DNA from: Escherichia coli
Lineage (GTDB): Bacteria > Pseudomonadota > Gammaproteobacteria > Enterobacterales > Enterobacteriaceae
Reading direction: 5' to 3' (one strand)
DNA length: 64,000 bases
Assembly (NCBI RefSeq): GCF_041248615.1
Contig: NZ_CP158426.1
The notes beneath the pieces are model-generated. The model ran no database searches. It was not told where the DNA came from and saw only the letters and a program-made list of their open reading frames with translations. Below, piece by piece: positions 6,763 through 29,709 of this stretch. Position 1 is the stretch's first letter, and each line of letters begins with the position of its first letter. The position numbers and the translations under genes were made by a program.

Positions 6763-9025
6763 CCTGGATCTCCTTCGACAATTCGACAAAGAAGGCGCTG
6801 TATCCGGCAACGCGCACCACCAGCCCGGCATAATCTTGTGGGCGCTGTTGCGCTTCCCGCAACGTGTCGGCGTTCACCACGTTAAACTGAATGTGTTGTA
6901 ACTTAAGCTGGGTAAATGCCCGTAAGAAGTCGGCCAGTTTGCGTAATCCCGCTTCACCTTCCAGGGTCGCCGGAGTGAATTTCACGTTCAGCAACGTACC
7001 GTTAGACAGCAGCGTATTATCGAGCTTACTGACTGACTTCAGTACCGCCGTTGGCCCTTGTGCGTCCTGACCCAGCATAGGTGACAAGCCGCCGTCTGCC
7101 AGTTGTTCCCCGGCAAAACGACCGTCTAGCGTCGCGCCAACCACCGATCCCAACGGGACGTGAGCAGAAACGGTATACGATCCCGGCGTGAAGTAGCCGC
7201 CGCGCGGGTTCTGGTATTTTTCCACTTCTTTGCAGTAGTGGCGTAACAGTTCGGCGCTGATGTTATCCACCTCGTCGATATCGTTACCGTATTTCTCGAA
7301 GCGGTTAATTAAGCGAGCACGGACTTTTTCGCCTTCTGGCGTTGCGAAGTTGGCTTTTAATACCGACAGCAATTCGTCAAAACTTAAACGCTGTTGCTCA
7401 AAAATCATACCTTTCAACGCATGGAGAGAATCGCTCAGGTTGGCGATACCGATCCCCTGTACGCCGGAGAAGTTATAACGCGCACCGCCATCGGTAATAT
7501 CGCGGCCTTTTTCCAGACAATCGCTGATAAAAGACGAGAGCAGCGGTACAGGTGCCCAGTCACGGTGACCGATATCGCAAATATTGCTGCCCTCAACCAT
7601 CAGGGTGATGTAGTGGCTGATCTTGGCGCGGATCTGCTCCAGTAAACCTTCATAAGTCAGCGCAGCATTGCCTTCATTTTCATGCAGGCAGATTTCCATC
7701 ACTTTCAGCAGATTAAACATCGCGATGTCATGCAAGCCGTAGGTTCTGCCGGGAATAGATAATTCCACACAGCCCACTACGGAATAGTCGCGCGCATCTT
7801 CCAGCGAAACGCCACGGTTGAGGAACGCTGGCACTACCACTTCATCGTTAAAGATTTGCGGAATACCGGTGCCGAGGCGAATGGTTTCTGCGGTTTTCAT
7901 CAGGAACGGCGTGTCGATCAAGGCGTTAGTGCGCACCCCCAGGTTCGGTTGCGGTAATTGCACGCTTTGATAAGCGTCAAGGCAAAGGAACGAAAGCACG
8001 TTCACCGCGCTACGTCCGTTCTCGGTTAACCCGCCGAGCAGTGCGGTATAGCCGGTCGGGAAACCGGCGAAATAACGCGCGCTACTGGTGGAGCGCAACA
8101 GCACGATGTCGTTGCATTTCACCCATAAAGATTCGAGCAGTTCTTTCAGGAACGCCGGATCTTCGCCCTGGGTTAAAGATGCCTGATAGAACGGCAACAT
8201 ATACTGGTCGAAGCGCCCTAAAGACAGCGAACTGGCGTTGGATTCGTATTGCAGAATGATGTTCATGTACCAGAATAACTGGCACGCCTGCCAGAACGTC
8301 TGCGGCTTATGTTCGGCGTTATGGCGAGAGATCTCCGCAATAGTCAGCAGTTCTTCGCGACGCTGGGCATCTGTGCAGTTTGCCGCCATCGTTTCCGCCA
8401 GTTCGGCGTAACGCAAAATGTGTTTCTGCGAGGCTTCGAGCAGTAACAGCGCTGCCTGATAAAAGTGATTCTCCGGCTGTTGCTGACAATGTTGCTGCAT
8501 CTGCGCTACCAGCTCACCCAGCCCGTGATTCAGCAGGCGCGGGTAATCAATAATAATGTGCCCCTGGCCTTTATCCGTCTGGTTGATGCTGAAAATCTGC
8601 GTGCTGGTCGCGGCTTTTACTTCATCCGTCATCTGCCCGTTGATGAAATCTTTCATCGAACGTTTTTCCCAGTACGGGAACAACTCTTCACGGTAGATAC
8701 GTTTATCTTCTTCGCTGATAGCAAAGCGGTCCTGCGGACGCGTCGGGAATTGATCCAGCTCTTTCAGCAGCCAGTAAGGGTCCATTTCCGGCGACATAAT
8801 TCCGGCGCGCGGTTTCACCGTACGGTTACCGGCAATCAGTTCTTCATCACGAATCGATATTTCAACATGTTCAAGGATATACGCTGTTGCTTTCGCCCGG
8901 CGCAATATCACCGGTTCGCCTTCGGTTTGCCGATGGCTGGCGGTATAAAGCAGCGCCCGCTCCAGCGAGATTTCACGGGTATTGGCAAACAGTGCAGTTT
9001 TGAGGCGAGAGATACGATTCGTCAT
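6728..9025 (-). CDS. pflD: Pyruvate formate-lyase-like glycyl radical enzyme PflD, 765 aa
   Basis: ORF 6728..9025; C-terminal glycyl-radical motif RVAGYSAFF; 35-bp overlap with pflC, typical operon arrangement. Confidence 0.93.
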   Translation of the reverse strand: MTNRISRLKTALFANTREISLERALLYTASHRQTEGEPVILRRAKATAYILEHVEISIRDEELIAGNRTVKPRAGIMSPEMDPYWLLKELDQFPTRPQDRFAISEEDKRIYREELFPYWEKRSMKDFINGQMTDEVKAATSTQIFSINQTDKGQGHIIIDYPRLLNHGLGELVAQMQQHCQQQPENHFYQAALLLLEASQKHILRYAELAETMAANCTDAQRREELLTIAEISRHNAEHKPQTFWQACQLFWYMNIILQYESNASSLSLGRFDQYMLPFYQASLTQGEDPAFLKELLESLWVKCNDIVLLRSTSSARYFAGFPTGYTALLGGLTENGRSAVNVLSFLCLDAYQSVQLPQPNLGVRTNALIDTPFLMKTAETIRLGTGIPQIFNDEVVVPAFLNRGVSLEDARDYSVVGCVELSIPGRTYGLHDIAMFNLLKVMEICLHENEGNAALTYEGLLEQIRAKISHYITLMVEGSNICDIGHRDWAPVPLLSSFISDCLEKGRDITDGGARYNFSGVQGIGIANLSDSLHALKGMIFEQQRLSFDELLSVLKANFATPEGEKVRARLINRFEKYGNDIDEVDNISAELLRHYCKEVEKYQNPRGGYFTPGSYTVSAHVPLGSVVGATLDGRFAGEQLADGGLSPMLGQDAQGPTAVLKSVSKLDNTLLSNGTLLNVKFTPATLEGEAGLRKLADFLRAFTQLKLQHIQFNVVNADTLREAQQRPQDYAGLVVRVAGYSAFFVELSKEIQDDIIRRTAHQL

Positions 9026-9075
9026 GAGGAACTCCTGTGGGAAAGCGAACCCGCCCTTACGGGCGGGATAAGAAC

Positions 9076-9396
9076 TTAAGCGGTTTGTGCCAGGTGAGCT
9101 TCAATTTTGCTCATAATGGCATCAGCGCGTTTTACCGCGTCGCTGATGTTGACGCGCACGATGGTCTTGCCAGCAAAACGCTCTTCAAACTTGATGCCGA
9201 TATCTTTGGTCAGAATCACCATATCGGCGCTCGCCACGTCTTCCGCAGTCAGTTCATTTTCCAGACCAATCGAGCCCTGGGTTTCTACTTTCACTTCCCA
9301 GCCTTTCGCTTTCGCGGCACTTTCCAGCGCCTCTGCCGCCATATAGGTATGGGCAACACCAGATGGACACGCGGTTACTGCAATAATTTTCGTCAT
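9076..9396 (-). CDS. frwB: PTS fructose-like IIB component FrwB, 106 aa
   Basis: ORF 9076..9396; IIB motif CPSGVAHTYMAAEALE. Confidence 0.9.
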   Translation of the reverse strand: MTKIIAVTACPSGVAHTYMAAEALESAAKAKGWEVKVETQGSIGLENELTAEDVASADMVILTKDIGIKFEERFAGKTIVRVNISDAVKRADAIMSKIEAHLAQTA

Positions 9397-9410
9397 GGCT
9401 CGTTCCTCAA

Positions 9411-10490
9411 TTAATTAATTTCAAAATCCAAATCCAGGTCGTCTTCTTTTTCATCAGTCGAAGACCCATTATTACGCGCCAGACTTTTCAGCACGTTCAC
9501 GCAGACTGCCGTCACAACCGCCCCGACAGCCACTGCTGCGATATAACCCAGCTTGCCTTCAACCACCGGCAGCACAATCAGACCGCCCCAGCCTGCATAG
9601 CACTGCGCACCGACCAGCGCCGCAGTTACTGCACCACAAACTGAACCGACCATGATGGAAGGAATAACACGCAGCGGATCGGCAGCGGCGAAAGGAATCG
9701 CCCCTTCAGTAACCCCAACGCACCCCATCACCAACGCCGCCTTGCCGGTTTCGCGCTCTTCTGCGGAGAAATTTTTACGACCAATCAGCGTCGCCAGCCC
9801 CATCCCCAGCGGCGGGATACAAATACCCACGGCAGCAATGGCCACCACGGTATATACACCCTGAGCAACGCAAATCAGCATGAAGGCATAGGCCACTTTG
9901 TTAACCGGACCGCCCATATCGAACGCCAGCATCAGACCCATGATCACCGCCAGCATAACAATGCTGCCCTGCTGCATCCCCTGAAGCCACTGAGTCAGGC
10001 TGTTGGTCAATGCCCCCACAGGCTCGCCCAGCCCCCACATCATGATGCCTGCGGTAATCAGTGTGCCGACGATCGGAATGATGAAGATTGGCATCACCGA
10101 GCGCAGAACTTTATGCACCGGAATTTTCTTCAGGTAATGCACCACGATGCCGCCAATAATCCCGGCGATCAGCGCACCAAAGAAGCCCGCACCAAAGCTG
10201 TTGCCGACCCAGGCACCGATAGCGCACGGGGCCAGCGCAGAGCGTTCTGCAATGGAATAACCAATGTAAGCAGCGAGGAAAGGCACCATCAGCGTCAAAC
10301 CTGCAACGCCGATATCAAACAGTTTTTTCAGATTCGGATCGGCTACGGCATCCGGCACTGCGCCTTTGCCATACAACATGACGGAAACCGCCAGCAAAAT
10401 ACCGCCCGATACCACGAAGGGAATCATGTGTGAAACGCCCGTCATTAAGTGCTGACGGGTATTTTTCAGGATCTGCACCAACTCATTCAT
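9411..10490 (-). CDS. frwC: PTS fructose-like IIC permease FrwC, 359 aa
   Basis: ORF 9411..10511 trimmed to MNELVQILKNT; polytopic membrane protein. Confidence 0.88.
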   Translation of the reverse strand: MNELVQILKNTRQHLMTGVSHMIPFVVSGGILLAVSVMLYGKGAVPDAVADPNLKKLFDIGVAGLTLMVPFLAAYIGYSIAERSALAPCAIGAWVGNSFGAGFFGALIAGIIGGIVVHYLKKIPVHKVLRSVMPIFIIPIVGTLITAGIMMWGLGEPVGALTNSLTQWLQGMQQGSIVMLAVIMGLMLAFDMGGPVNKVAYAFMLICVAQGVYTVVAIAAVGICIPPLGMGLATLIGRKNFSAEERETGKAALVMGCVGVTEGAIPFAAADPLRVIPSIMVGSVCGAVTAALVGAQCYAGWGGLIVLPVVEGKLGYIAAVAVGAVVTAVCVNVLKSLARNNGSSTDEKEDDLDLDFEIN

Positions 10491-10798
10491 AAGCTGCTCC
10501 CGGGCTTGCAAAAGCCCATGTCCATATTTTTGATGGAGGAAACAATAGGCAATCGCAGGCGGAGCAAACAGTGGATAAAAAGGCCATTTACTGGACTTTT
10601 GTAATATCAGTACAAAAATGCGATCCGCCTCATAACTTGCGGCAACCCGGAAGCATGCCGCAAAACGGCGTCTTGTGAGACGCGTCGCAAATTGACGGTT
10701 ACATTACATTTGTCCAGCTTTTGGCAGATTTGTCACATGGCAGGCCGTTGCCGTGCGCTCTTATCCTGTAAACAGAAAACCGTACCGGGAGAGAGGCA

Positions 10799-13300
10799 AT
10801 GGCCCTGATTGTGGAATTTATTTGTGAGCTACCTAACGGCGTACATGCGCGCCCGGCAAGCCACGTTGAAACGCTGTGTAATACTTTTTCATCACAAATT
10901 GAGTGGCATAACCTGCGCACTGACCGCAAGGGCAACGCCAAAAGCGCCCTTGCGCTGATTGGCACCGATACGCTGGTGGGCGATAACTGCCAGTTACTGA
11001 TTTCCGGGGCCGACGAACAGGAAGCGCACCAGCGTTTAAGCCAATGGCTGCGCGATGAATTCCCCCACTGCGACGCACCGCTGGCGGAAGTAAAATCTGA
11101 CGAACTGGAACCACTGCCGGTTTCACTGACCAATCTGAATCCGCGAATTATCCGCGCCCGCACCGTGTGCAGCGGTAGCGCAGGCGGCATTCTGACGCCG
11201 ATCTCTTCTTTAGATCTCAATGCGCTGGGTAATCTTCCCGCTGCCAAAGGCGTTGATGCCGAACAATCCGCACTGGAAAACGGCCTGACGCTGGTACTGA
11301 AAAACATAGAGTTTCGTCTGCTGGATAGCGACGGTGCTACCAGCGCGATTCTGGAAGCGCACCGATCCCTGGCTGGCGATACTTCCCTGCGCGAACATTT
11401 ACTGGCAGGCGTCAGCGAGGGATTAAGCTGTGCCGAAGCGATTGTCGCCAGTGCACACCACTTCTGCGAAGAGTTCGCCCGTTCCAGCAGCAGCTACCTG
11501 CAAGAACGCGCCCTGGACGTACGCGACGTCTGCTTCCAGTTACTCCAGCAAATCTACGGTGAGCAACGCTTCCCGGCACCGGGCAAACTGACGCAGCCCG
11601 CCATTTGTATGGCTGATGAACTAACCCCCAGCCAGTTCCTCGAACTGGATAAAAATCACCTCAAAGGATTGTTGCTCAAAAGCGGCGGCACCACCTCACA
11701 TACCGTAATTCTTGCCCGTTCGTTCAACATTCCGACGCTGGTTGGTGTGGATATTGATGCCCTTACCCCGTGGCAACATCAAACGATTTATATCGACGGC
11801 AACGCCGGAGCGATTGTGGTTGAGCCAGGGGAAGCCGTAGCCCGTTATTATCAGCAAGAAGCCCGCGTACAGGATGCCCTGCGTGAGCAACAGCGTGTCT
11901 GGCTGACCCAACAAGCCCGTACCGCTGATGGTATCCGCATTGAAATTGCTGCTAACATCGCTCACTCCGTGGAAGCGCAGGCCGCATTCGGCAATGGTGC
12001 GGAAGGAGTTGGTTTGTTCCGCACTGAAATGCTCTATATGGATCGCACCAGCGCACCGGGCGAAAGCGAGCTGTACAACATTTTTTGTCAGGCGCTGGAG
12101 TCCGCCAACGGACGCAGCATTATTGTGCGCACTATGGATATTGGCGGTGACAAACCCGTTGATTATCTGAACATTCCCGCAGAGGCAAACCCGTTCCTCG
12201 GTTATCGCGCCGTGCGTATTTATGAAGAGTACGCGTCGTTATTTACCACACAACTACGGTCGATTCTCCGTGCCTCCGCTCACGGCAGCCTGAAAATCAT
12301 GATCCCGATGATCTCTTCAATGGAAGAGATCTTATGGGTGAAAGAAAAACTGGCGGAAGCCAAACAGCAACTGCGCAATGAACATATTCCGTTTGATGAG
12401 AAGATCCAGCTTGGCATCATGCTTGAAGTGCCGTCGGTGATGTTCATCATCGATCAATGCTGTGAAGAGATTGATTTCTTTAGTATTGGTAGTAATGACC
12501 TGACGCAATATCTGCTGGCAGTAGATCGCGATAACGCTAAGGTTACTCGTCACTACAACAGCCTGAATCCGGCATTCTTACGGGCGCTCGATTACGCCGT
12601 GCAGGCGGTGCATCGCCAGGGCAAATGGATTGGTCTGTGCGGTGAACTGGGAGCGAAAGGTTCCGTGCTGCCGTTGCTGGTCGGTTTAGGGCTGGATGAG
12701 CTGAGCATGAGCGCACCATCAATTCCGGCGGCGAAAGCGCGGATGGCGCAACTTGATAGCCGCGAATGCCGCCAGTTGCTCAACCAGGCAATGGCCTGCC
12801 GTACTTCGCTGGAAGTGGAACACCTGCTGGCGCAATTCCGCATGACCCAACAGGACGCGCCGCTGGTCACCGCCGAGTGCATCACGCTGGAAAGCGACTG
12901 GCGCAGCAAAGAAGAAGTGCTGAAAGGCATGACCGATAACCTGCTACTGGCGGGCCGCTGCCGCTATCCGCGTAAACTGGAAGCCGACTTGTGGGCACGC
13001 GAGGCCGTTTTCTCTACCGGTCTGGGCTTTAGTTTTGCCATTCCCCACAGCAAATCGGAACATATTGAGCAATCCACCATCAGCGTAGCGCGTCTGCAAG
13101 CGCCGGTGCGCTGGGGCGATGATGAAGCACAATTCATCATTATGTTAACCCTGAACAAACATGCTGCGGGCGATCAGCACATGCGCATTTTCTCGCGCCT
13201 CGCTCGCCGCATCATGCACGAAGAATTCCGTAACGCGCTGGTTAACGCCGCCTCTGCCGACGCTATCGCCAGCCTGCTGCAACATGAACTGGAACTGTAA
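10799..13300 (+). CDS. ptsA: Multiphosphoryl transfer PTS protein PtsA/FrwA (HPr-like, EI-like and IIA domains), 833 aa
   Basis: ORF 10799..13300; PEP-utilising enzyme signature ([21 protein letters not shown]) and a C-terminal IIA-like domain. Confidence 0.93.
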
Positions 13301-19569: not shown

Positions 19570-20463
<894 letters not shown>

Positions 20464-20502
20464 TTACCTCATCAATCGCTTGTAGTTATATGTTGTGTTG
20501 TG

Positions 20503-20534
20503 AACATCTATCCATTTAGACGTCCAGATGTAAA
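20503..20534 (-). promoter_or_regulatory. MetJ operator (tandem met boxes) upstream of metF
   Basis: Tandem 8-bp units related to AGACGTCT (acatctggacgtctaaatggatagatgt on the metF strand), 40-75 bp upstream of the metF start. Confidence 0.6.
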
Positions 20535-20841
20535 GATGAAGGAAAAGCCGAGGGGCGTCAACCGAAAAATGACCAATGATGGTGAGGAAAAATCAGGGAA
20601 GTTGAAAAAAACTCATCTTAATTAGAGGCGATAAAAGATTTCTCTATAGCGCAATCCACCTCGCACGTTTTGACTGATATTCTGACAACACAGCGACACC
20701 TGGGCTTATTCGAAAAACAACGTCCTGCCACCGGATGGTGATGCTAAGGCATCTGATTCGGCCTGCGCCCTCGCGTAGGCCGAATACTGGATCTGCAAAA
20801 TCAACTGGTAACAAACAGATGAATCAACTCAATACGTACTT

Positions 20842-22395
20842 TTACTTGATATCTTTCACGCGCATACCGTTGATCTGTTCATCCGTGATGGTGTTACCCG
20901 CTTTGAAGTAATCAACCACGGCGTGATAAACGTAATAACCGCCCGTTGTGTTACGCGCTTTCCCTTCGGTAAAGGCGGTAAAACCATCTCCACCATCAGC
21001 AAGGAAACTCTGAGTAGCAATGTGGTAAATCGTCGCATCTTCAATGGGTTTGCCATTCAGAGTCAGCGTGATTACCCGCTGACCAACCGGCTTACTGCTG
21101 TCGTACTTCATTTCCAGGCCTTTCGATACCTGTAAAACGCCATTACTTAAACTTGCGCCGTGTTCCATCAAACTGCGTAATTGTTTACCCGTGAGATCCA
21201 TCGTCACCAGTTCGTTGGGAAACGGGAAGGTACTGATGACGCCGCCCATCGTAATCGCCCCTGCGGGGATCTCATTGCGAATGCCGCCAGAGTTGGTTAA
21301 CGCCAATTGGGTGTTTTTACCCGCCGCTACCAGTAAAGCATCAGCCGCCAGGTTCCCGAGGGAAGCCGATTCACCATAGGCACGTTTTAATTCAACCGGC
21401 GATTTCGCGACCGTTTGTTGCACCACTTCATCAAGCTTTTTATTCCAGCCGTCGATCACCTGTTTTGTTTGCGGATCGGGCTTCCACTCGTCGGCGTAAA
21501 TGGTTTTAAGCTCGAAGTTTTTCACCGTAAAATCATGCGGCTTCTCTTTGTAGTCGAGAACCAGTTTGCCCACATCAATCCCGCCGCTGTCAGTGGAGAG
21601 GATGAGCGTATTGCCGACTTTAATCGGTTCCGGCGTACCCACATGCGCATGTCCGGTGATCAAAATATCCAGCCCTTTCACCTGACTTGCCGTCTGAATA
21701 TCTTTATCCAGCGCGCGACGCACATCTGTGCCTCCCATACTGGACTGGCGGGCCGGAACACCTTCATGGATCAGGGCGACGGTCAAATCAACCTTGCCTT
21801 TAAGTTCATCGATATAACGTTGTAGCCATTTAATTTCATCACGCGCTTCAATCCCCACTCGCGTTGCCGCAGATACCGTGTCATTAAAGGCAAATACACC
21901 GTGCAAACCTATAACGCCTATTTTCACTCCGTCTTTTTCGATGATGGTATATGGCTTATCCCAGAATGATTTACTGCTGTTCTGATAAAAAACATTGCCC
22001 TGCACAATAGGGAATTTTGCCTGACTCAACTGTAATAATGTGTTGTCCCAGCCGTGGTCAAATTCATGGTTGCCTATCGTGACGGCATCAAACGGCATAG
22101 TATTCATAATATCGATAATAGCCTTACCTTTGGTCAGGCTGCTGATATATGGCCCGGTAAAATAATCACCCGCATCAAAAAACCATGTCGCTTTATTTTT
22201 TGCTTTTTCTTGCTTAACCAGCGTAGTGATATTTGCCCAGCCGCCAATATCCCGTTTACCATCAGCGATCCACGGCACTTTATAAGGCTCGACATGCGCA
22301 TGGAGGTCGTTGGTATAAATGATGGTGACATCTTTGGCGCAAGCCCAAAACGGCAGTGTTAATGCGATACCCGCAGCAAGTATTTTAATTTTCAT
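20842..22395 (-). CDS. Secreted bifunctional metallophosphoesterase/5'-nucleotidase family protein (UshA/CpdB-like), 517 aa
   Basis: ORF 20842..22395; N-terminal signal peptide [20 protein letters not shown]; calcineurin-like motifs NDLHAH, GDYFTG, GNHEFD, GHAH; C-terminal 5'-nucleotidase-type substrate domain. No equivalent gene between metF and metL in K-12 as I recall. Confidence 0.75.
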
Positions 22396-22527
22396 AAACA
22401 GTCCCTTTCAGTGAGATAAAGGATTGCTACATTACGTTCTGAAAGAGTTATTTATGTGAGAGTAATCACATCCACAGGGGAGCGTTGCCGGACAAAATCA
22501 ACGACCATGTGAAATCGTTGGTGATAT

Positions 22528-23658
22528 ATGTCGACTCTGTTTACGATTAATGCCTGCAAGTCGTTTGGTTGCCGTAATTTAGGGCAGCCAACATCTAAAG
22601 ATTATAGCTGGCCCGACTATCGGCTGGGTTATCCGGCATTGCACTGTCGGGCATGTGGCAGTTACCCGCCGTTGTTTGACGAGCAACAATTTCGTGACTG
22701 GTTGTCAGTTCACTTATCTACTTTTGCAACAGAGAAAGGCCATTTTTGCCCGGTATGTTATGGCACAAAGACGATTTGTTATGGCCACAATCCACAGGGG
22801 TCGCAACGCATTCAATGTCGTAACTGCAAAAAAGTCTGGACACCTAAACAATATCAGAAAGAAATAACGCCTCCTGAAATAATCGAAACGGTTGCTCTTC
22901 TGGTGCCATTTCAGGGAGCCAGCAATGGGCAGAAACTGTATGTTTTAATCAGTTTTGATGCTCTTCGCGGTAATATTCTTCATCTTTCTACTAATTACAC
23001 GCAGCATCAGGCTGGAGAAAGTCTGCATTATCGATACAGAGGGAATGCAGAACCAGAGTTACACGAGAGTAATATTGTACAACGCGTTGATATGCGCGAA
23101 GCACAATTTCTACGCCGCAGTCAGTTTGATGAAATTCAGTATGGCAGCGCAGCGCTCAAACGCAATGCTAAAGGTGTTATTCTGCGTCCGGTTATCACTG
23201 CACACGGGCATTTCAGAGTACTGAATATTTTATTCCCTACAGTAAAAACACATGTAATTTCACACGAGTGTTTTTTAAGAGGTGCGATTATTACGGCCTG
23301 GGCAGAACTGTTTCGCCAACAGCAAGGTGAGATTTGGTTTATTGAAGAGGAAATAGCTGACTATACCGATAATACGCCCTGGCGTTTTCAGGGAAAAACT
23401 TATCACGGCTGGTGGAAAAATCAGTGGCAACTCTGGGTTCAGGGCAAAAATCGTAAAATGGTATGTGCATTAACGGGCGGAAATATCAGCAAAGCTGAAA
23501 TGCTCTCTTTAGCAACCAGCAGACATTTTATCGACTGGCTACATAAACAAGCAGTATTTACTCACAGCGCCCCGCTTTCCGCAGGGCGCGTTACGCAAAT
23601 ACTGCTTTCTCTGGCTCAGGATTACAACAACTGCGCCAGGCGGTTAATATCCGACTGA
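22528..23658 (+). CDS. Uncharacterised 376-aa protein with N-terminal Cys-rich zinc-ribbon region (transposase InsA/IS1595-type)
   Basis: ORF 22528..23658; motifs C-x4-C, C-x2-C and CPVC-x17-QRIQCRNCKKVW resembling IS1 InsA and IS1595 zinc ribbons; no obvious DDE triad; 3' end overlaps the convergent metL stop by about 37 bp. Confidence 0.55.
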   Translation: MSTLFTINACKSFGCRNLGQPTSKDYSWPDYRLGYPALHCRACGSYPPLFDEQQFRDWLSVHLSTFATEKGHFCPVCYGTKTICYGHNPQGSQRIQCRNCKKVWTPKQYQKEITPPEIIETVALLVPFQGASNGQKLYVLISFDALRGNILHLSTNYTQHQAGESLHYRYRGNAEPELHESNIVQRVDMREAQFLRRSQFDEIQYGSAALKRNAKGVILRPVITAHGHFRVLNILFPTVKTHVISHECFLRGAIITAWAELFRQQQGEIWFIEEEIADYTDNTPWRFQGKTYHGWWKNQWQLWVQGKNRKMVCALTGGNISKAEMLSLATSRHFIDWLHKQAVFTHSAPLSAGRVTQILLSLAQDYNNCARRLISD

Positions 23659-26054
23659 ATCGCCCCTGCGGTGACGTCGCGCCCCGCGCCAGGCCCACGG
23701 ATCACCAGAGGGTTATCGCGATACCAGCGGCTTTCGATGGCAAAGACGTTATCGCACGGCAGCAGTGATGCCAGCGGATGGTCTTCACGCACCGCTTCCA
23801 CGCCCACACGCGCTTTGCCATTGGCATCGAAACGCGCCACGTAGCGCAGCACCAGCCCCATTTCGCGGGCCGCTTCCAGCCGTTGCACCATCTGCTCGTT
23901 AAGTTCATCGCCGTTTTCAAAGAAATGGTCGATGCTACCACCTTCGCAATGGGCAGGCACCAGCGATTCCACGCGCACCTGATCTGGTTCGATGTCGTAA
24001 CCCGCTTCACGCGCCAGAATCACCAGCTTGCGCATCACGTCTTTGCCGGAAAGGTCATCACGCGGATCAGGCTCGGTTAAGCCCTGCTGCCACGCCTGAT
24101 CCACCAGCTCGGTAAACGGCACGCTACCGTCGAATTGCAGGAACAGCCAGGAGAGCGTGCCGGAGAAGATCCCACTGATCGACAAAATAGTATCGCCGCT
24201 GTCGATCAGATCGCGCACGGTATGGTTGATCGGCAAGCCCGCACCGACGGTGGCGTTGTACAGCCAGTGACGCCCGGTTTTTTCGAAGGCGTCGTGGATC
24301 TGGCGATATTTATTGCTGTCGCTGGCTCCCGCCAGTTTGTTGGCGCTGATGACGTGGAAACCGTGGCTGGCAAAATCGAGATACTGATCAGCAAGCTGCT
24401 GGCTGGCGGTAACGTCCAACACCACTAAATCATCATACGGATGGGCGCGCATCCACAGGAACAGCGACTCTTCATCCTGCTCGACCGCTTCATCGTTGAA
24501 GAAGGCTAACGCGCGGCTGGCGTCCAGCCCGTCATAACTCAACAGGCTACGGCGGCTGTCCACCACGCCTGCCAGCACAAATTCAAAGCCGGTACGCGCC
24601 GAGAGCGTGCTCTGCTCACGGGCGAACAGTTCCAGCCAGCGGGAACCGATATTGCCCTTGCCGAACAATACCAGGCCGATGCGTTTTTCTGCGCGGAAGA
24701 CGGACTGATGCAGCCCCTGAATCAGGCTTTCGGTCGGTCCGGTGCGCAGTACTGCCACCAGGCTGATGCCGTCATCCGACTGCCAGGTAAATTCGACCGG
24801 CTGGCCTTTCAGTTGCTGCCAGAAGCGGTGGCAATGCAGCGGGTTACGGGTTACGCCCGCCCCAACCATCGCCACCAGCGCCAGCCCCTGACGCAGGCGC
24901 AGTTCGCCAGGTAATCCCGCTTCGTCGAGGATTTTCAGCGCACTGTCGGCCACTTCTGAGGTGTAGCAAAATTGCAGCAACTGGCGATCGTTATGTACGC
25001 CAACCGCCAGTGGGCGCACCTGAGCACGTTTCAGGATCTGGTCGATCTCTTTATGCGCCAGTTTGAAATCCTGGCTGGTGGGCACCTGAAACTCAATCAA
25101 GCAGACATCATCGTGGCTGGTGACAATACGCGCACCAGTACCGGAGGCCAGCACGCGTTCAATGCGCGTGGAACCTTGATCCGGCGTGTAGCTACAGCGC
25201 AGCTGCAGGTCAATTTCGCTGCCAGAAACCGGCTGTAAAGTACGGGCGTGAAGAACGGGAGCCGCCAGACGCGCCAGTTCGCTGGCCTCATCCAGACGCA
25301 GCAACGGCAGCAGGCAGGCATCTTTCACTTTACGCGGGTCGGCACTGTATACCCCGGCGACGTCGCTCCAGATGGTGACGCGAGAAACACCCGCCAGCGC
25401 ACCGATTTGTGTCGCGGAATAGTCGGAACCGTTACGCCCCAGCAGCACCGTTTCACCGGCGTTGTTACGGCTGATAAACCCGGTCACCACCAGACGTTTG
25501 CCCGGATGTTGCACCAGTAGCTGTTGCAGCAACGGGTAAGAAAGCCCTTCATCAACCTGCGGTTGCGCAGCGCGTTCAGCGCGTAAAAACTCGCGGGCAT
25601 CAAGCCAGGCCGCTGGCAGCCCTTGTTGATTAAGCACCGCAGACATCAGGCGCGCCGACCACACTTCACCGTGACCCACCACTTCCGCATACACCGCATC
25701 GTTAATACCGCTGTCGAGCAGCGCCGCCAGGCGCTCAAGATCGCTGACAAAAGCGCTAATGAGGCTATCGGCTTCTTCGGCGGGTAGCAGGCCGCTAATC
25801 AGATCGCACTGATAGCGACGCAGCGTTTGTTGAACCTGATGCGCAGAGAGACGATCGGTCTGACTTAGTTTCAACCAGTTAATCAACTGGTTAGTGGTGC
25901 TACCGGCGGCGGAAACCACCATCATATCGTCAGGCTGAGAGTACTCCGCCATAATGCCCGCGACACGCAAATAACACTTCACATCAGCCAGACTACTGCC
26001 ACCAAATTTATGCAGTTGACGACCTTTCGCCCCTGCCTGCGCAATCACACTCAT
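23622..26054 (-). CDS. metL: Bifunctional aspartokinase II / homoserine dehydrogenase II, 810 aa
   Basis: ORF 23622..26054 (MSVIAQAGAKGRQLHKFGGSSLADVKCY...). Confidence 0.95.
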   Translation of the reverse strand: MSVIAQAGAKGRQLHKFGGSSLADVKCYLRVAGIMAEYSQPDDMMVVSAAGSTTNQLINWLKLSQTDRLSAHQVQQTLRRYQCDLISGLLPAEEADSLISAFVSDLERLAALLDSGINDAVYAEVVGHGEVWSARLMSAVLNQQGLPAAWLDAREFLRAERAAQPQVDEGLSYPLLQQLLVQHPGKRLVVTGFISRNNAGETVLLGRNGSDYSATQIGALAGVSRVTIWSDVAGVYSADPRKVKDACLLPLLRLDEASELARLAAPVLHARTLQPVSGSEIDLQLRCSYTPDQGSTRIERVLASGTGARIVTSHDDVCLIEFQVPTSQDFKLAHKEIDQILKRAQVRPLAVGVHNDRQLLQFCYTSEVADSALKILDEAGLPGELRLRQGLALVAMVGAGVTRNPLHCHRFWQQLKGQPVEFTWQSDDGISLVAVLRTGPTESLIQGLHQSVFRAEKRIGLVLFGKGNIGSRWLELFAREQSTLSARTGFEFVLAGVVDSRRSLLSYDGLDASRALAFFNDEAVEQDEESLFLWMRAHPYDDLVVLDVTASQQLADQYLDFASHGFHVISANKLAGASDSNKYRQIHDAFEKTGRHWLYNATVGAGLPINHTVRDLIDSGDTILSISGIFSGTLSWLFLQFDGSVPFTELVDQAWQQGLTEPDPRDDLSGKDVMRKLVILAREAGYDIEPDQVRVESLVPAHCEGGSIDHFFENGDELNEQMVQRLEAAREMGLVLRYVARFDANGKARVGVEAVREDHPLASLLPCDNVFAIESRWYRDNPLVIRGPGAGRDVTAGAIQSDINRLAQLL

Positions 26055-28623: not shown

Positions 28624-28896
28624 ATGGTCACAGTTAACCTTCATTGTCCCCGTTGCCAGTCCGTTCAGGTTTACCGTCACGGGCAGAACCCCAAAAGACA
28701 TGATCGATTCCGCGGCCGTGACTGTCACCGGGTATTTCAGCTCAGTTACTGTTACGAGCCCCGTAAACCAGGAGTTAAAGACCAAATCGCTGAAATGGCT
28801 TTCAACGGTGCCGGGGTTCGCTATACTGCCCTTACGCTGAAAATCGGCATTAATACAGTCATCCGAACTTTAAAAAACTCTCGCCACGAAAAATAA
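28624..28896 (+). CDS. insA: IS1-family InsA-like zinc-ribbon protein, 90 aa
   Basis: ORF 28624..28896; CPRC-x17-CHRVFQ zinc ribbon plus HTH region (GAGVRYTALTLKIGINTVIRTLKNS); roughly 40% identity to canonical IS1 InsA by eye. Confidence 0.75.
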   Translation: MVTVNLHCPRCQSVQVYRHGQNPKRHDRFRGRDCHRVFQLSYCYEPRKPGVKDQIAEMAFNGAGVRYTALTLKIGINTVIRTLKNSRHEK

Positions 28897-28922
28897 CGTC
28901 ATCCCCGGTCGCTCATGCTGAT

Positions 28923-29330
28923 GTGGCACTCATCTGCGAACTTAGTCAGCAATGGAGCTTTGTCGGCAGTAAAGCGCGACAGCACTGGCTCTGGTACGTG
29001 TACAACACGAAAACTGGTGGTGTTCTGGCCTACACTTTTGGCCCCCGGACTGATGAAACCTGTCGTGAACTGCTGGCGCTGCTTACCCTTTTACCATCGG
29101 CATGTTGACCACTGACGAATGGGGTAGTTACGCTAGAGAGTTACCAAAGGAGAAGCATCTGACTGGTAAGATTTTTACTCAGCACATTGAGCGTAACAAT
29201 CTGACCCTGAGAACCCGAATCAAACGTCTGGCCCGCAGAACCATCTGTTTCTCGCGTTCTGTAGAACTTCATGAAAAAGTCATCGGTGCTTTTATCGAAA
29301 ATATATGTTCTACTAATTGGAGTCATCACC
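28923..29330 (+). pseudogene. insB: IS1-family insB-like transposase segment, split across two frames
   Basis: InsB-like sequence in ORF 28923..29108 (EQWSFVGSKARQHWLWYVY) continues in another frame in ORF 29102..29416 (TDEWGSY...RSVELHEKVIG); frame break near 29100; the second ORF reads through the IS end. Confidence 0.6.
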
Positions 29331-29385
29331 CTTCTGATGAGCTTTCCTTGGATGATTACCAGACTGAATACACAGCCAAAGATTT

Positions 29386-29709
29386 TTACCTCATTCTGCT
29401 CTTTTTTCTCAAATGACATATATTATATTTTACATCATATTCATAGGCATATGACATTCCCCCGCCCCCCATTATGTCATTGTGGGTTGATGTTGGGCTT
29501 TCATAAAAAAATACATCTTTTTTTGAACTAGCATTAATTATATTTACTTTATATATTAAAATATTTTCTCCATCTGGAAATATTTTAGCCACACAATATA
29601 AAGCAGCTAAATCCGAATTACTTAAAAATATATTGTCATCACTCATAACTCCAGCCATTAAATGACTGGAGACTAAAGCAAGGAAATAACAACATTGTAT
29701 TACCTTCAT
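29386..29709 (-). CDS. Putative Rhs immunity protein, 107 aa, with N-terminal hydrophobic signal or anchor
   Basis: Native ATG at 29709 lies 1 nt after the reconstructed native rhs stop (TAA, 29713..29711). N-terminus MKVIQCCYFLALVSSHLMAGV; AT-rich DNA. ORF-track entry 29386..29769 is extended into IS5. Confidence 0.55.
   Translation of the reverse strand: MKVIQCCYFLALVSSHLMAGVMSDDNIFLSNSDLAALYCVAKIFPDGENILIYKVNIINASSKKDVFFYESPTSTHNDIMGGGGMSYAYEYDVKYNICHLRKKSRMR

Follow-up and report, generated by a model that had tools for sequence, protein, structure and literature searches.

The stretch of DNA analysed here, hereafter the window, comprises 64,000 nucleotides of the Escherichia coli contig NZ_CP158426.1. 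It represents E. coli chromosomal DNA with the gene order katG–metF–[two extra genes]–metL–metB–metJ, and 3.4 kb of it was 100% identical to the E. coli chromosome NZ_LT599825. The two extra genes encode a 5'-nucleotidase and, on the opposite strand, a 376-aa protein. The open reading frame (ORF) for the latter, which forms the subject of this study, very probably represents a domesticated, non-mobile derivative of the transposase of the insertion sequence (IS) IS1. The genes and the segment that they form are located as follows.

22528–23658, plus strand: gene for the IS1-transposase-derived protein, 376 aa, ATG start (ORF list and RefSeq annotation)
20842–22395, minus strand: divergent partner gene, UshA-like bifunctional metallophosphatase/5'-nucleotidase, 517 aa (NCBIfam matches and annotation)
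20611–23620: two-gene segment holding the nucleotidase gene and the ORF (blastn comparison with the K-12 metL–metF region)

In E. coli K-12, 197 unrelated bp between the metL stop codon and the metF promoter take the place of this segment. The ORF was found in 1842 of 5426 complete E. coli genomes (34%), at a median of one and a maximum of two places per genome, and was single-copy within the window. Natural presence/absence variants therefore occur within the species, with sequence type 131 (ST131) and Nissle carrying the gene and K-12 lacking it. Two of 1843 E. coli matches to the ORF were plasmid-borne instead of chromosomal.

The RefSeq entry for the ORF product (WP_000105523.1) is labelled 'hypothetical protein' or 'cytoplasmic'. 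Homologues numbered 253 at E ≤ 1e-3, and an exhaustive search of 1.8 billion representative proteins yielded a family of 119 cluster representatives, whose full-length members were 400–570 aa long and showed 21–40% identity. Database labels on family members were 'cytoplasmic protein', 'hypothetical' and, for some members annotated by PGAP, 'IS1 family transposase'; the last of these is misleading. The predicted isoelectric point of the E. coli protein was 9.1 overall and 9.4 for its second zinc ribbon, and its sequence contained no obvious signal peptide. No curated family was found for the product, and searches that included its accession and locus tags found no publication on it. The metL..metF region has been described as 'GR 31' of extraintestinal pathogenic E. 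coli (ExPEC), with Tsx-like and UshA-like ORFs, in a 2026 paper that does not mention the present gene (PMC12928451). PADLOC defence models gave zero matches for the ORF product and for the adjacent nucleotidase. Four regions were distinguished in the protein.

22555–22656, plus strand: zinc ribbon 1 (C10, C15, C40, C43), N-terminal and family-specific
22747–22827, plus strand: zinc ribbon 2 (C74, C77, C97, C100), IS1 InsA-type (NCBIfam, Pfam and hhalign)
22879–23322, plus strand: predicted RNase-H-like core of the DDE-transposase type, aa 118–265, with no conserved acidic triad
23323–23628, plus strand: four-stranded, Trp-rich beta insert (W295, W296, W300) and C-terminal helices up to the conserved Y366-N367 (AlphaFold2 secondary structure and conservation)

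The original prediction for this ORF had pointed to Cys pairs typical of transposase zinc ribbons. All eight Cys residues were confirmed in the translation, as C10-x4-C15, C40-x2-C43, C74-x2-C77 (CPVC) and C97-x2-C100 (CRNC), and were conserved in a 51-member family alignment, on which the conservation figures given here are based. C97 and C100 were kept in all 51 members, C77 in 49 and C74 in 40. The Cys residues of ribbon 1 were kept by every member that has the region (47–48 of 51, the others being N-terminally truncated), and AlphaFold2 modelled this ribbon as paired beta hairpins with a predicted local distance difference test (pLDDT) score of ~96.

The ribbons had further been likened to those of both IS1 InsA and IS1595-family transposases, and only the first half of this comparison withstood analysis. 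For the E. coli protein alone, the NCBIfam models IS1_IS1595_Zn and transpos_IS1 aligned to aa 74–123 with sub-threshold scores: the former reached 21.3 bits against a cut-off of 28, and the latter (NF033558) 21.4 bits, over model positions 1–49 only and below its curated cut-off of 100 bits. Pfam Zn_ribbon_InsA gave E = 0.11 for the same protein. Family-wide, the InsA likeness became significant: profile hidden Markov model searches detected Zn_ribbon_InsA in 8 of 51 members at E ≤ 1e-3, the 28-bit cut-off of IS1_IS1595_Zn was reached by three of ten distant members (a fourth scored 27.9 bits), and a distant member from Vibrio taketomensis (P0141) covered positions 1–130 of the 199 of the NCBIfam IS1 transposase model. 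Alignment of the family with K-12 IS1 InsAB' by hhalign gave probabilities of 93.7–96.3%, the 93.7% alignment spanning InsAB' residues 4–44. These alignments were confident over the ribbon and, in members that have one, over a helix-turn-helix (HTH); their extension into the core was of low confidence and agreed with the NCBIfam envelope for P0141.

The resemblance to IS1595-family transposases was confined to an N-terminal ribbon of the shared IS1/IS1595 type (NCBIfam NF050000). Pfam Zn_ribbon_IS1595 matched none of the 51 members at E ≤ 1e-3 and only five at E ≤ 0.1, and DDE_Tnp_IS1595 matched no family member. The top structural matches listed included several IS1 transposases and none described as belonging to the IS1595 family. 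The parent family, as identified by the InsA-type ribbon, is IS1 and not IS1595, and transposase ancestry is an established part of the present account. Matches from PDB profile searches were generic C2H2 fingers, driven by Cys spacing, and were discounted.

Sequence searches against Pfam, PHROGs, PDB and NCBIfam returned nothing for aa 110–376. The earlier statement that the ~270 residues beyond the ribbons hold no recognisable DDE core was accordingly correct at the level of sequence, but it did not hold for structure. The AlphaFold2 model of the E. coli protein, calculated with the family alignment as input, had a pLDDT of 94.1 and a predicted template modelling score (pTM) of 0.93, and in it these C-terminal residues take the form of a transposase RNase-H-like catalytic core that is visible by structure only. 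The 50 best Foldseek matches in afdb50 were all family members; these indicated the taxonomic spread of the family and therefore provided no outgroup. Remoter 'cytoplasmic proteins' of Salmonella and E. coli in the AlphaFold database, 22–26% identical, shared the fold.

Invariant or near-invariant residues in the family alignment were N156, Y168, R197, Y205, P221, H228, H246, E247, W296 and W300. None of these is an Asp, and no Asp was invariant in the family. Mostly acidic columns occurred only at positions 144 (75%), 201 (86%) and 247 (100%); all three were kept in 35 of 51 members, and 16 of 51 lacked at least one. The column matched to the first catalytic Asp of IS1 (MDEQW, aligned with NQLW) was never acidic. 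A first topology guess, which placed strand beta1 at aa 118–127, was replaced on the basis of the profile alignment, which puts the IS1 D1 strand at aa 135–144; the D1 position was non-acidic whichever of the two mappings was used. Equivalences of the second Asp and the Glu to IS1 are of low confidence, as they derive from profile alignment.

A second AlphaFold2 model, of the V. taketomensis member P0141 (pLDDT 92.8), had ribbon 2 separated from the core by three additional helices. In this model the three helices are an InsA-type HTH, with which they aligned confidently by hhalign. In the model of the E. coli protein, ribbon 2 led directly into the first core strand and the HTH was absent.

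IS1 InsAB' and the ORF product thus differ in several respects. The latter has 376 aa instead of 232, with an additional N-terminal ribbon, the Trp-rich beta insert and a long C-terminal helical extension, and its enterobacterial subfamily lacks the HTH, a conserved DDE triad, terminal repeats and the frameshift architecture of IS1, and is single-copy and syntenic. InsA, the N-terminal product of the IS1 transposase gene, is a repressor of IS1 transposition.

Mobility of the gene was examined by searching for an inverted-repeat pair that brackets either the ORF (22396–22527 versus 23600–23900) or the segment 20611–23620; none was found, in agreement with the original prediction. Comparison of the window allele with that of Nissle 1917 yielded a ratio of non-synonymous to synonymous substitution rates (dN/dS) of 0.13 overall and 0.10 in the C-terminal (core) domain, at a dS above 1, which indicates long-term purifying selection. 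Synteny was assessed by scanning one genome per species, which gave 39 enterobacterial loci, 38 of them informative. The order metF–nucleotidase–ORF–metL was present in at least nine genera: Escherichia, Pseudocitrobacter, Citrobacter, Klebsiella, Kosakonia, Phytobacter, Superficieibacter, Kluyvera and Salmonella arizonae, in the last of which it is degraded. This pattern is that of a resident host gene that was lost repeatedly, as in K-12 and, in the form of pseudogenes, in strain 2018-05-2CC, and not that of an insertion sequence. Because the gene is single-copy, lacks terminal repeats, shows fixed synteny across genera and has a dN/dS of 0.13, domestication is well supported. The earlier view of a domesticated or highly diverged transposase derivative was thereby upheld.

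An ordinary, very divergent IS1-family transposase, still mobile or recently inactivated, or an IS remnant, in either case without host function, would account for the PGAP label on some members, the IS1-type ribbon and fold, the patchy occurrence in 34% of E. coli genomes and the presence of two copies in some of these. The window even contains a genuine IS1-family relic ~5 kb from the ORF. This degraded element, which we used as an internal control, lies between yiiX and the gene after it (28624–29416, plus strand); an InsA-like ORF of 90 aa comes first, and then two InsB-like fragments that are in different frames. On NCBIfam transpos_IS1 it scored 81, 67 and 57 bits over positions 1–199, whereas the ORF scored 21 bits, over the ribbon only, against a cut-off of 100. 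The occupation of one chromosomal position with a constant neighbour in at least nine genera, the lack of terminal inverted repeats flanking either the ORF or the segment of two genes, the purifying selection and the missing catalytic triad likewise contradict an ordinary insertion sequence, and the second copies are divergent paralogues (35–75% identity) with nucleotidase partners of their own. An ordinary insertion sequence is therefore largely refuted and, in our judgement, highly improbable.

Some further observations concern the relic and the additional copies. The MDEQW motif reads LSQQW in the IS1 relic. The second, divergent paralogue occurs at another locus in E. coli SCPM-O-B-8794, Escherichia sp. 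MOD1-EC7003 and Citrobacter spp. (loci L026, L046, L047 and L053), each time with its own divergent nucleotidase gene and often with more nucleotidase and tsx genes. A third state of the metL–metF locus was seen in E. coli 2018-05-2CC (L058, 3005–6212), in which a phosphotransferase system EIIC gene and a malI-like regulator gene replace most of the module and pseudogene stubs of the nucleotidase and the 'cytoplasmic protein' remain.

The genes surrounding the family, in many bacteria of gut and marine habitats, are those of nucleotide and nucleoside scavenging. The ORF was divergently paired with a 5'-nucleotidase gene of the same type (nuc1) in all 38 informative enterobacterial loci. Nissle and other B2 strains have two further nucleotidase genes and the gene of a Tsx-type nucleoside channel downstream of it, all in its orientation. 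This long form of the locus, which B2 and other strains carry (L010, Nissle 1917, 7001–12505; also L059), holds two UshA-like nucleotidase genes and a Tsx paralogue between the ORF and metL. Relative to the window, its promoter and the first ~350 nt of its ORF were ~97% identical and the remainder 75–80% (dS > 1), which identifies the ORF as a recombination mosaic.

Nucleotide or nucleoside genes directly adjoined the family gene in 12 of the 13 contexts inspected gene by gene; the sole non-fitting context was a 2.7-kb contig in which only 156 bp precede the family gene. A divergent 5'-nucleotidase gene was found beside it in V. taketomensis and two other genomes, and a nucleotidase gene directly upstream on the same strand in Photobacterium ganghwense and one other genome. 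One metagenomic contig combined tsx, a nucleotidase gene and a phosphodiesterase/sulfatase-type hydrolase gene. In Motilimonas, xapX, a purine nucleoside phosphorylase (PNP) gene, tal, deoB and nupC lie on one side and tsx and an adenosine deaminase gene on the other, and in Agarivorans the family gene faces a divergent nupC-deoC-deoA-deoB-deoD operon, with genes for TatD and a Bmp-type ATP-binding cassette transporter close by. Thaumasiovibrio has an xapX-like gene and a PNP gene at this place, and Salmonella Give has genes for a porin, an AphA-like phosphatase and a class II cyclic-nucleotide phosphodiesterase.

In these contexts the partners vary and the pathway is constant. Moreover, the N-terminus of the partner nucleotidase in the window (20 residues, followed by KD) is signal-peptide-like and that of the ORF product is not. 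This is the pattern of a local regulator rather than of a pathway enzyme. Consistent with such a pattern, we favour on balance the interpretation that the domesticated protein regulates transcription of the adjacent nucleotide and nucleoside scavenging genes.

The same gene association would fit equally well an enzyme that acts on imported oligonucleotides. A domesticated protein of this kind would not be a DNA-binding transcription factor and would itself take part in the metabolism of nucleotides or nucleic acids, for instance as a nuclease of the cytoplasm or an enzyme that processes or binds oligonucleotides, by means of D144/D201/E247 or H228/H246/E247/R197; alternatively, it might modulate CRP/CytR-type regulation through protein contacts. 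The RNase-H fold is a nuclease fold, position 247 is acidic in all members, H228 and R197 are invariant, three acidic columns coexist in 35 of 51 members, and the enterobacterial subfamily has no HTH. Against this, the partners switch by taxon (nucleotidase, deo operon, PNP or phosphodiesterase) around a constant protein, which a regulator fits better; a signal-peptide-like N-terminus is present on the partner nucleotidase only; the acidic columns are not all invariant; and two conserved zinc ribbons of the DNA-binding type have been kept under selection. We regard a metabolic role or one exerted by protein contacts as rather unlikely.

The region from which both genes of the window would be controlled was analysed by phylogenetic footprinting of 26 enterobacterial sequences and contained three conserved features.

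22396–22527: control region of 132 bp from which the nucleotidase gene and the ORF diverge
22455–22470: perfect CRP core TGTGA-N6-TCACA, its centre ~65 nt away from each of the two start codons
22426–22445: conserved block GCTACATTACGTTCTGAAAG, on that side of the CRP site which faces the nucleotidase start, a candidate operator or core promoter
22493–22523: conserved element CAAAATCAACGACC-N6-AAATCGTTGGTG directly 5' of the ORF start, a candidate autoregulatory operator or 5'-untranslated-region element

The CRP core was the sole perfect match to TGTGA-N6-TCACA in the 64-kb window, in which 0.02 were expected, and was kept in the aligned loci, including those of paralogues whose proteins are 35–37% identical. 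The sequence ACGTTCTGAAAG was nearly invariant across genera whose ORF products are merely 58–77% identical. The element at 22493–22523 includes an imperfect inverted repeat, CAACGA/TCGTTG. Its interpretation as an RNA hairpin 5' of the ORF was rejected, since the left arm varies without compensation.

Two other observations were made on these promoter regions. Resemblances to a CytR half-site, of the form GTTGC(A/C), occur near the CRP core, around 22481–22486. An identical 13-mer, CGAAGTGCATCAC, is shared by the promoter regions beside the family members of V. taketomensis and of an unrelated metagenomic contig (L011, 3309–3435; L006, 4513–5061), and lies within a CRP-like T(A/G)CGA-N6-TCAC(A/G) site.

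In the mechanism that we propose, the protein would combine two zinc ribbons, the second of InsA type, with an IS1-like core of RNase-H fold that has no conserved catalytic triad. Acting at the divergent promoter, which would be shared and CRP-dependent, the protein would bind DNA through its ribbons; its target would be the divergent 5'-nucleotidase gene in the window and, in other strains, also the additional nucleotidase genes and the Tsx-type channel gene. The former catalytic domain may have been re-used as a ligand-sensing or oligomerisation module, for which a nucleoside or nucleotide could be the ligand; this last step is speculation, put forward only because of the invariant Arg/His/Glu/Tyr/Trp set and the pathway. 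DNA binding, the regulatory role with its sign, and the identity of any ligand are what we infer in this scheme.

Several results weigh against a regulatory role. The enterobacterial subfamily deleted the HTH that distant relatives and IS1 InsA carry, so that DNA binding would need the zinc ribbons. A search for a repeated operator motif (CGACC-N-AAAT, AAATCGTTGG) ahead of the remaining nucleotidase genes and of tsx in the long-form loci found none, and, together with the loss of the HTH, this weakens the case for DNA binding. The conserved promoter blocks could be ordinary promoter, ribosome-binding-site or CRP/CytR elements. Residual catalysis, for which the D144, D201 and E247 retained in the E. 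coli protein might serve, is unlikely. Furthermore, the gene is dispensable, being absent from about two-thirds of E. coli genomes and a pseudogene in some, and the literature search returned no experiment on its product.

If the protein is a regulator, its setting resembles that of known nucleoside regulation. In E. coli, CytR and DeoR regulate the genes for nucleoside uptake and catabolism (tsx, deo, udp, cdd, nupC/G). The family is found beside the same gene classes (tsx-like genes, deoCABD, nupC and genes for nucleoside phosphorylases), and its divergent promoter has a strong CRP site like those of CytR-controlled promoters. Its fold and putative DNA-binding module are, in contrast, unrelated to those of the LacI and DeoR families.

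Transposon proteins have been domesticated into transcription factors elsewhere, as in the TnpB-derived TldR repressors of bacteria and FHY3/FAR1 and the ZBED and THAP proteins of eukaryotes. The present family would share with these a retained DNA-recognition module, the loss of catalysis and a fixed locus by its presumed target genes. It differs in its parent, which is a DDE transposase of the IS1 type and not a TnpB, Mutator or hAT protein, and in the absence of a guide RNA. To our knowledge, DDE transposases that became host regulators are well known from eukaryotes, and from bacteria hardly any case has been documented.

More tentatively, the ORF product may be the founding member of an unrecognised bacterial class of transcription factors or nucleotide sensors derived from a DDE (IS1) transposase. 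In such a class the ribbons, joined by the HTH in Vibrionales and Alteromonadales, would read the operator, and a dead core would serve, through its invariant Arg/His/His-Glu/Tyr/Trp pocket, as the sensor of a nucleoside or nucleotide; the protein would switch on a CRP-dependent regulon for the scavenging of extracellular nucleotides in Enterobacterales, Vibrionales and Alteromonadales, including ExPEC such as ST131. If the regulatory interpretation favoured above is correct, the scavenging of nucleotides and nucleosides would be under a further level of control in addition to CRP, CytR and DeoR, the protein would exemplify re-use of an RNase-H catalytic core as a sensor, and the annotations 'IS1 family transposase' and 'cytoplasmic protein' would require correction. 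The family offers a clean and experimentally easy case, with a small size, a confident model, consistent neighbourhoods, a 132-bp promoter and natural presence/absence variants.

The 3' end of the ORF, where it meets metL (23622–26054, minus strand), showed three additional features.

23622–23658: convergent 3' overlap of the ORF and metL, 37 nt (ORF coordinates)
23629–23658, plus strand: non-conserved 9-aa tail NCARRLISD and stop codon, antisense to the last metL codons
23549–23607, minus strand: strong hairpin within the 3' coding region of the ORF, an inverted repeat with 27-nt arms, 15 nt past the metL stop codon and followed by UUGUUUAUGU

The convergent overlap with metL, given as about 37 bp in the original prediction, measures exactly 37 nt. 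The family alignment stops at YN, before the tail; homology to K-12 resumes at 23621; and residues 371–376, inside the tail, had a mean pLDDT of 52. The same 37-nt overlap occurs in Pseudocitrobacter and E. whittamii, and one of 26 nt in three Klebsiella species, Kosakonia, Phytobacter and C. braakii. In the remaining Citrobacter the two genes do not overlap, and the 26–91 nt between them are filled by hairpins resembling repetitive extragenic palindromic (REP) elements. The 37-nt overlap was considered as a recent deletion scar of a Nissle-like long form, for which TACAA microhomology is present; this was rejected, as other genera share the tail and the overlap. The tail-to-tail arrangement is consequently old.

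The hairpin at 23549–23607 had a predicted folding free energy of -43.8 kcal/mol and a z-score of -6.1 in the metL sense (minus strand), and a z-score of -5.1 on the plus strand. In the Nissle allele, which lies next to a gene other than metL, the homologous stretch had no structure (z ~0), and in three Klebsiella species an equivalent GC-rich hairpin is followed by U4-5. On the simplest interpretation, the hairpin is probably the intrinsic terminator of metBL, located inside a coding sequence, and it possibly acts as a bidirectional terminator. Of the coupling to metL termination that had been attributed to the overlap, the link with termination thus gains some support from this hairpin, and the overlap itself proved to be widespread across genera. 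The embedded hairpin suggests that the terminator of a convergent operon (metBL) is encoded within a protein-coding sequence.

This hairpin by metL, together with the loss or pseudogenisation of the gene in many strains, is what a spurious or decaying frame would predict, namely one kept open solely by a second role of its 3' end as terminator region of metBL. Purifying selection nevertheless acts along the full length of the ORF, including the N-terminal ribbons far from metL. Full-length homologues, down to ~20% identity, occur away from metL in Vibrionales and Alteromonadales, and the AlphaFold2 model is highly confident. The chance that the frame is spurious or decaying is practically negligible.

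A search of Rfam yielded no credible RNA family in 20300–24000. A further GC-rich hairpin with 13-nt arms (ATTCGGCCTGCGC/GCGTAGGCCGAAT) is situated at 20756–20785, just 3' of the nucleotidase gene, and is likely the terminator of that gene or a REP-like element.

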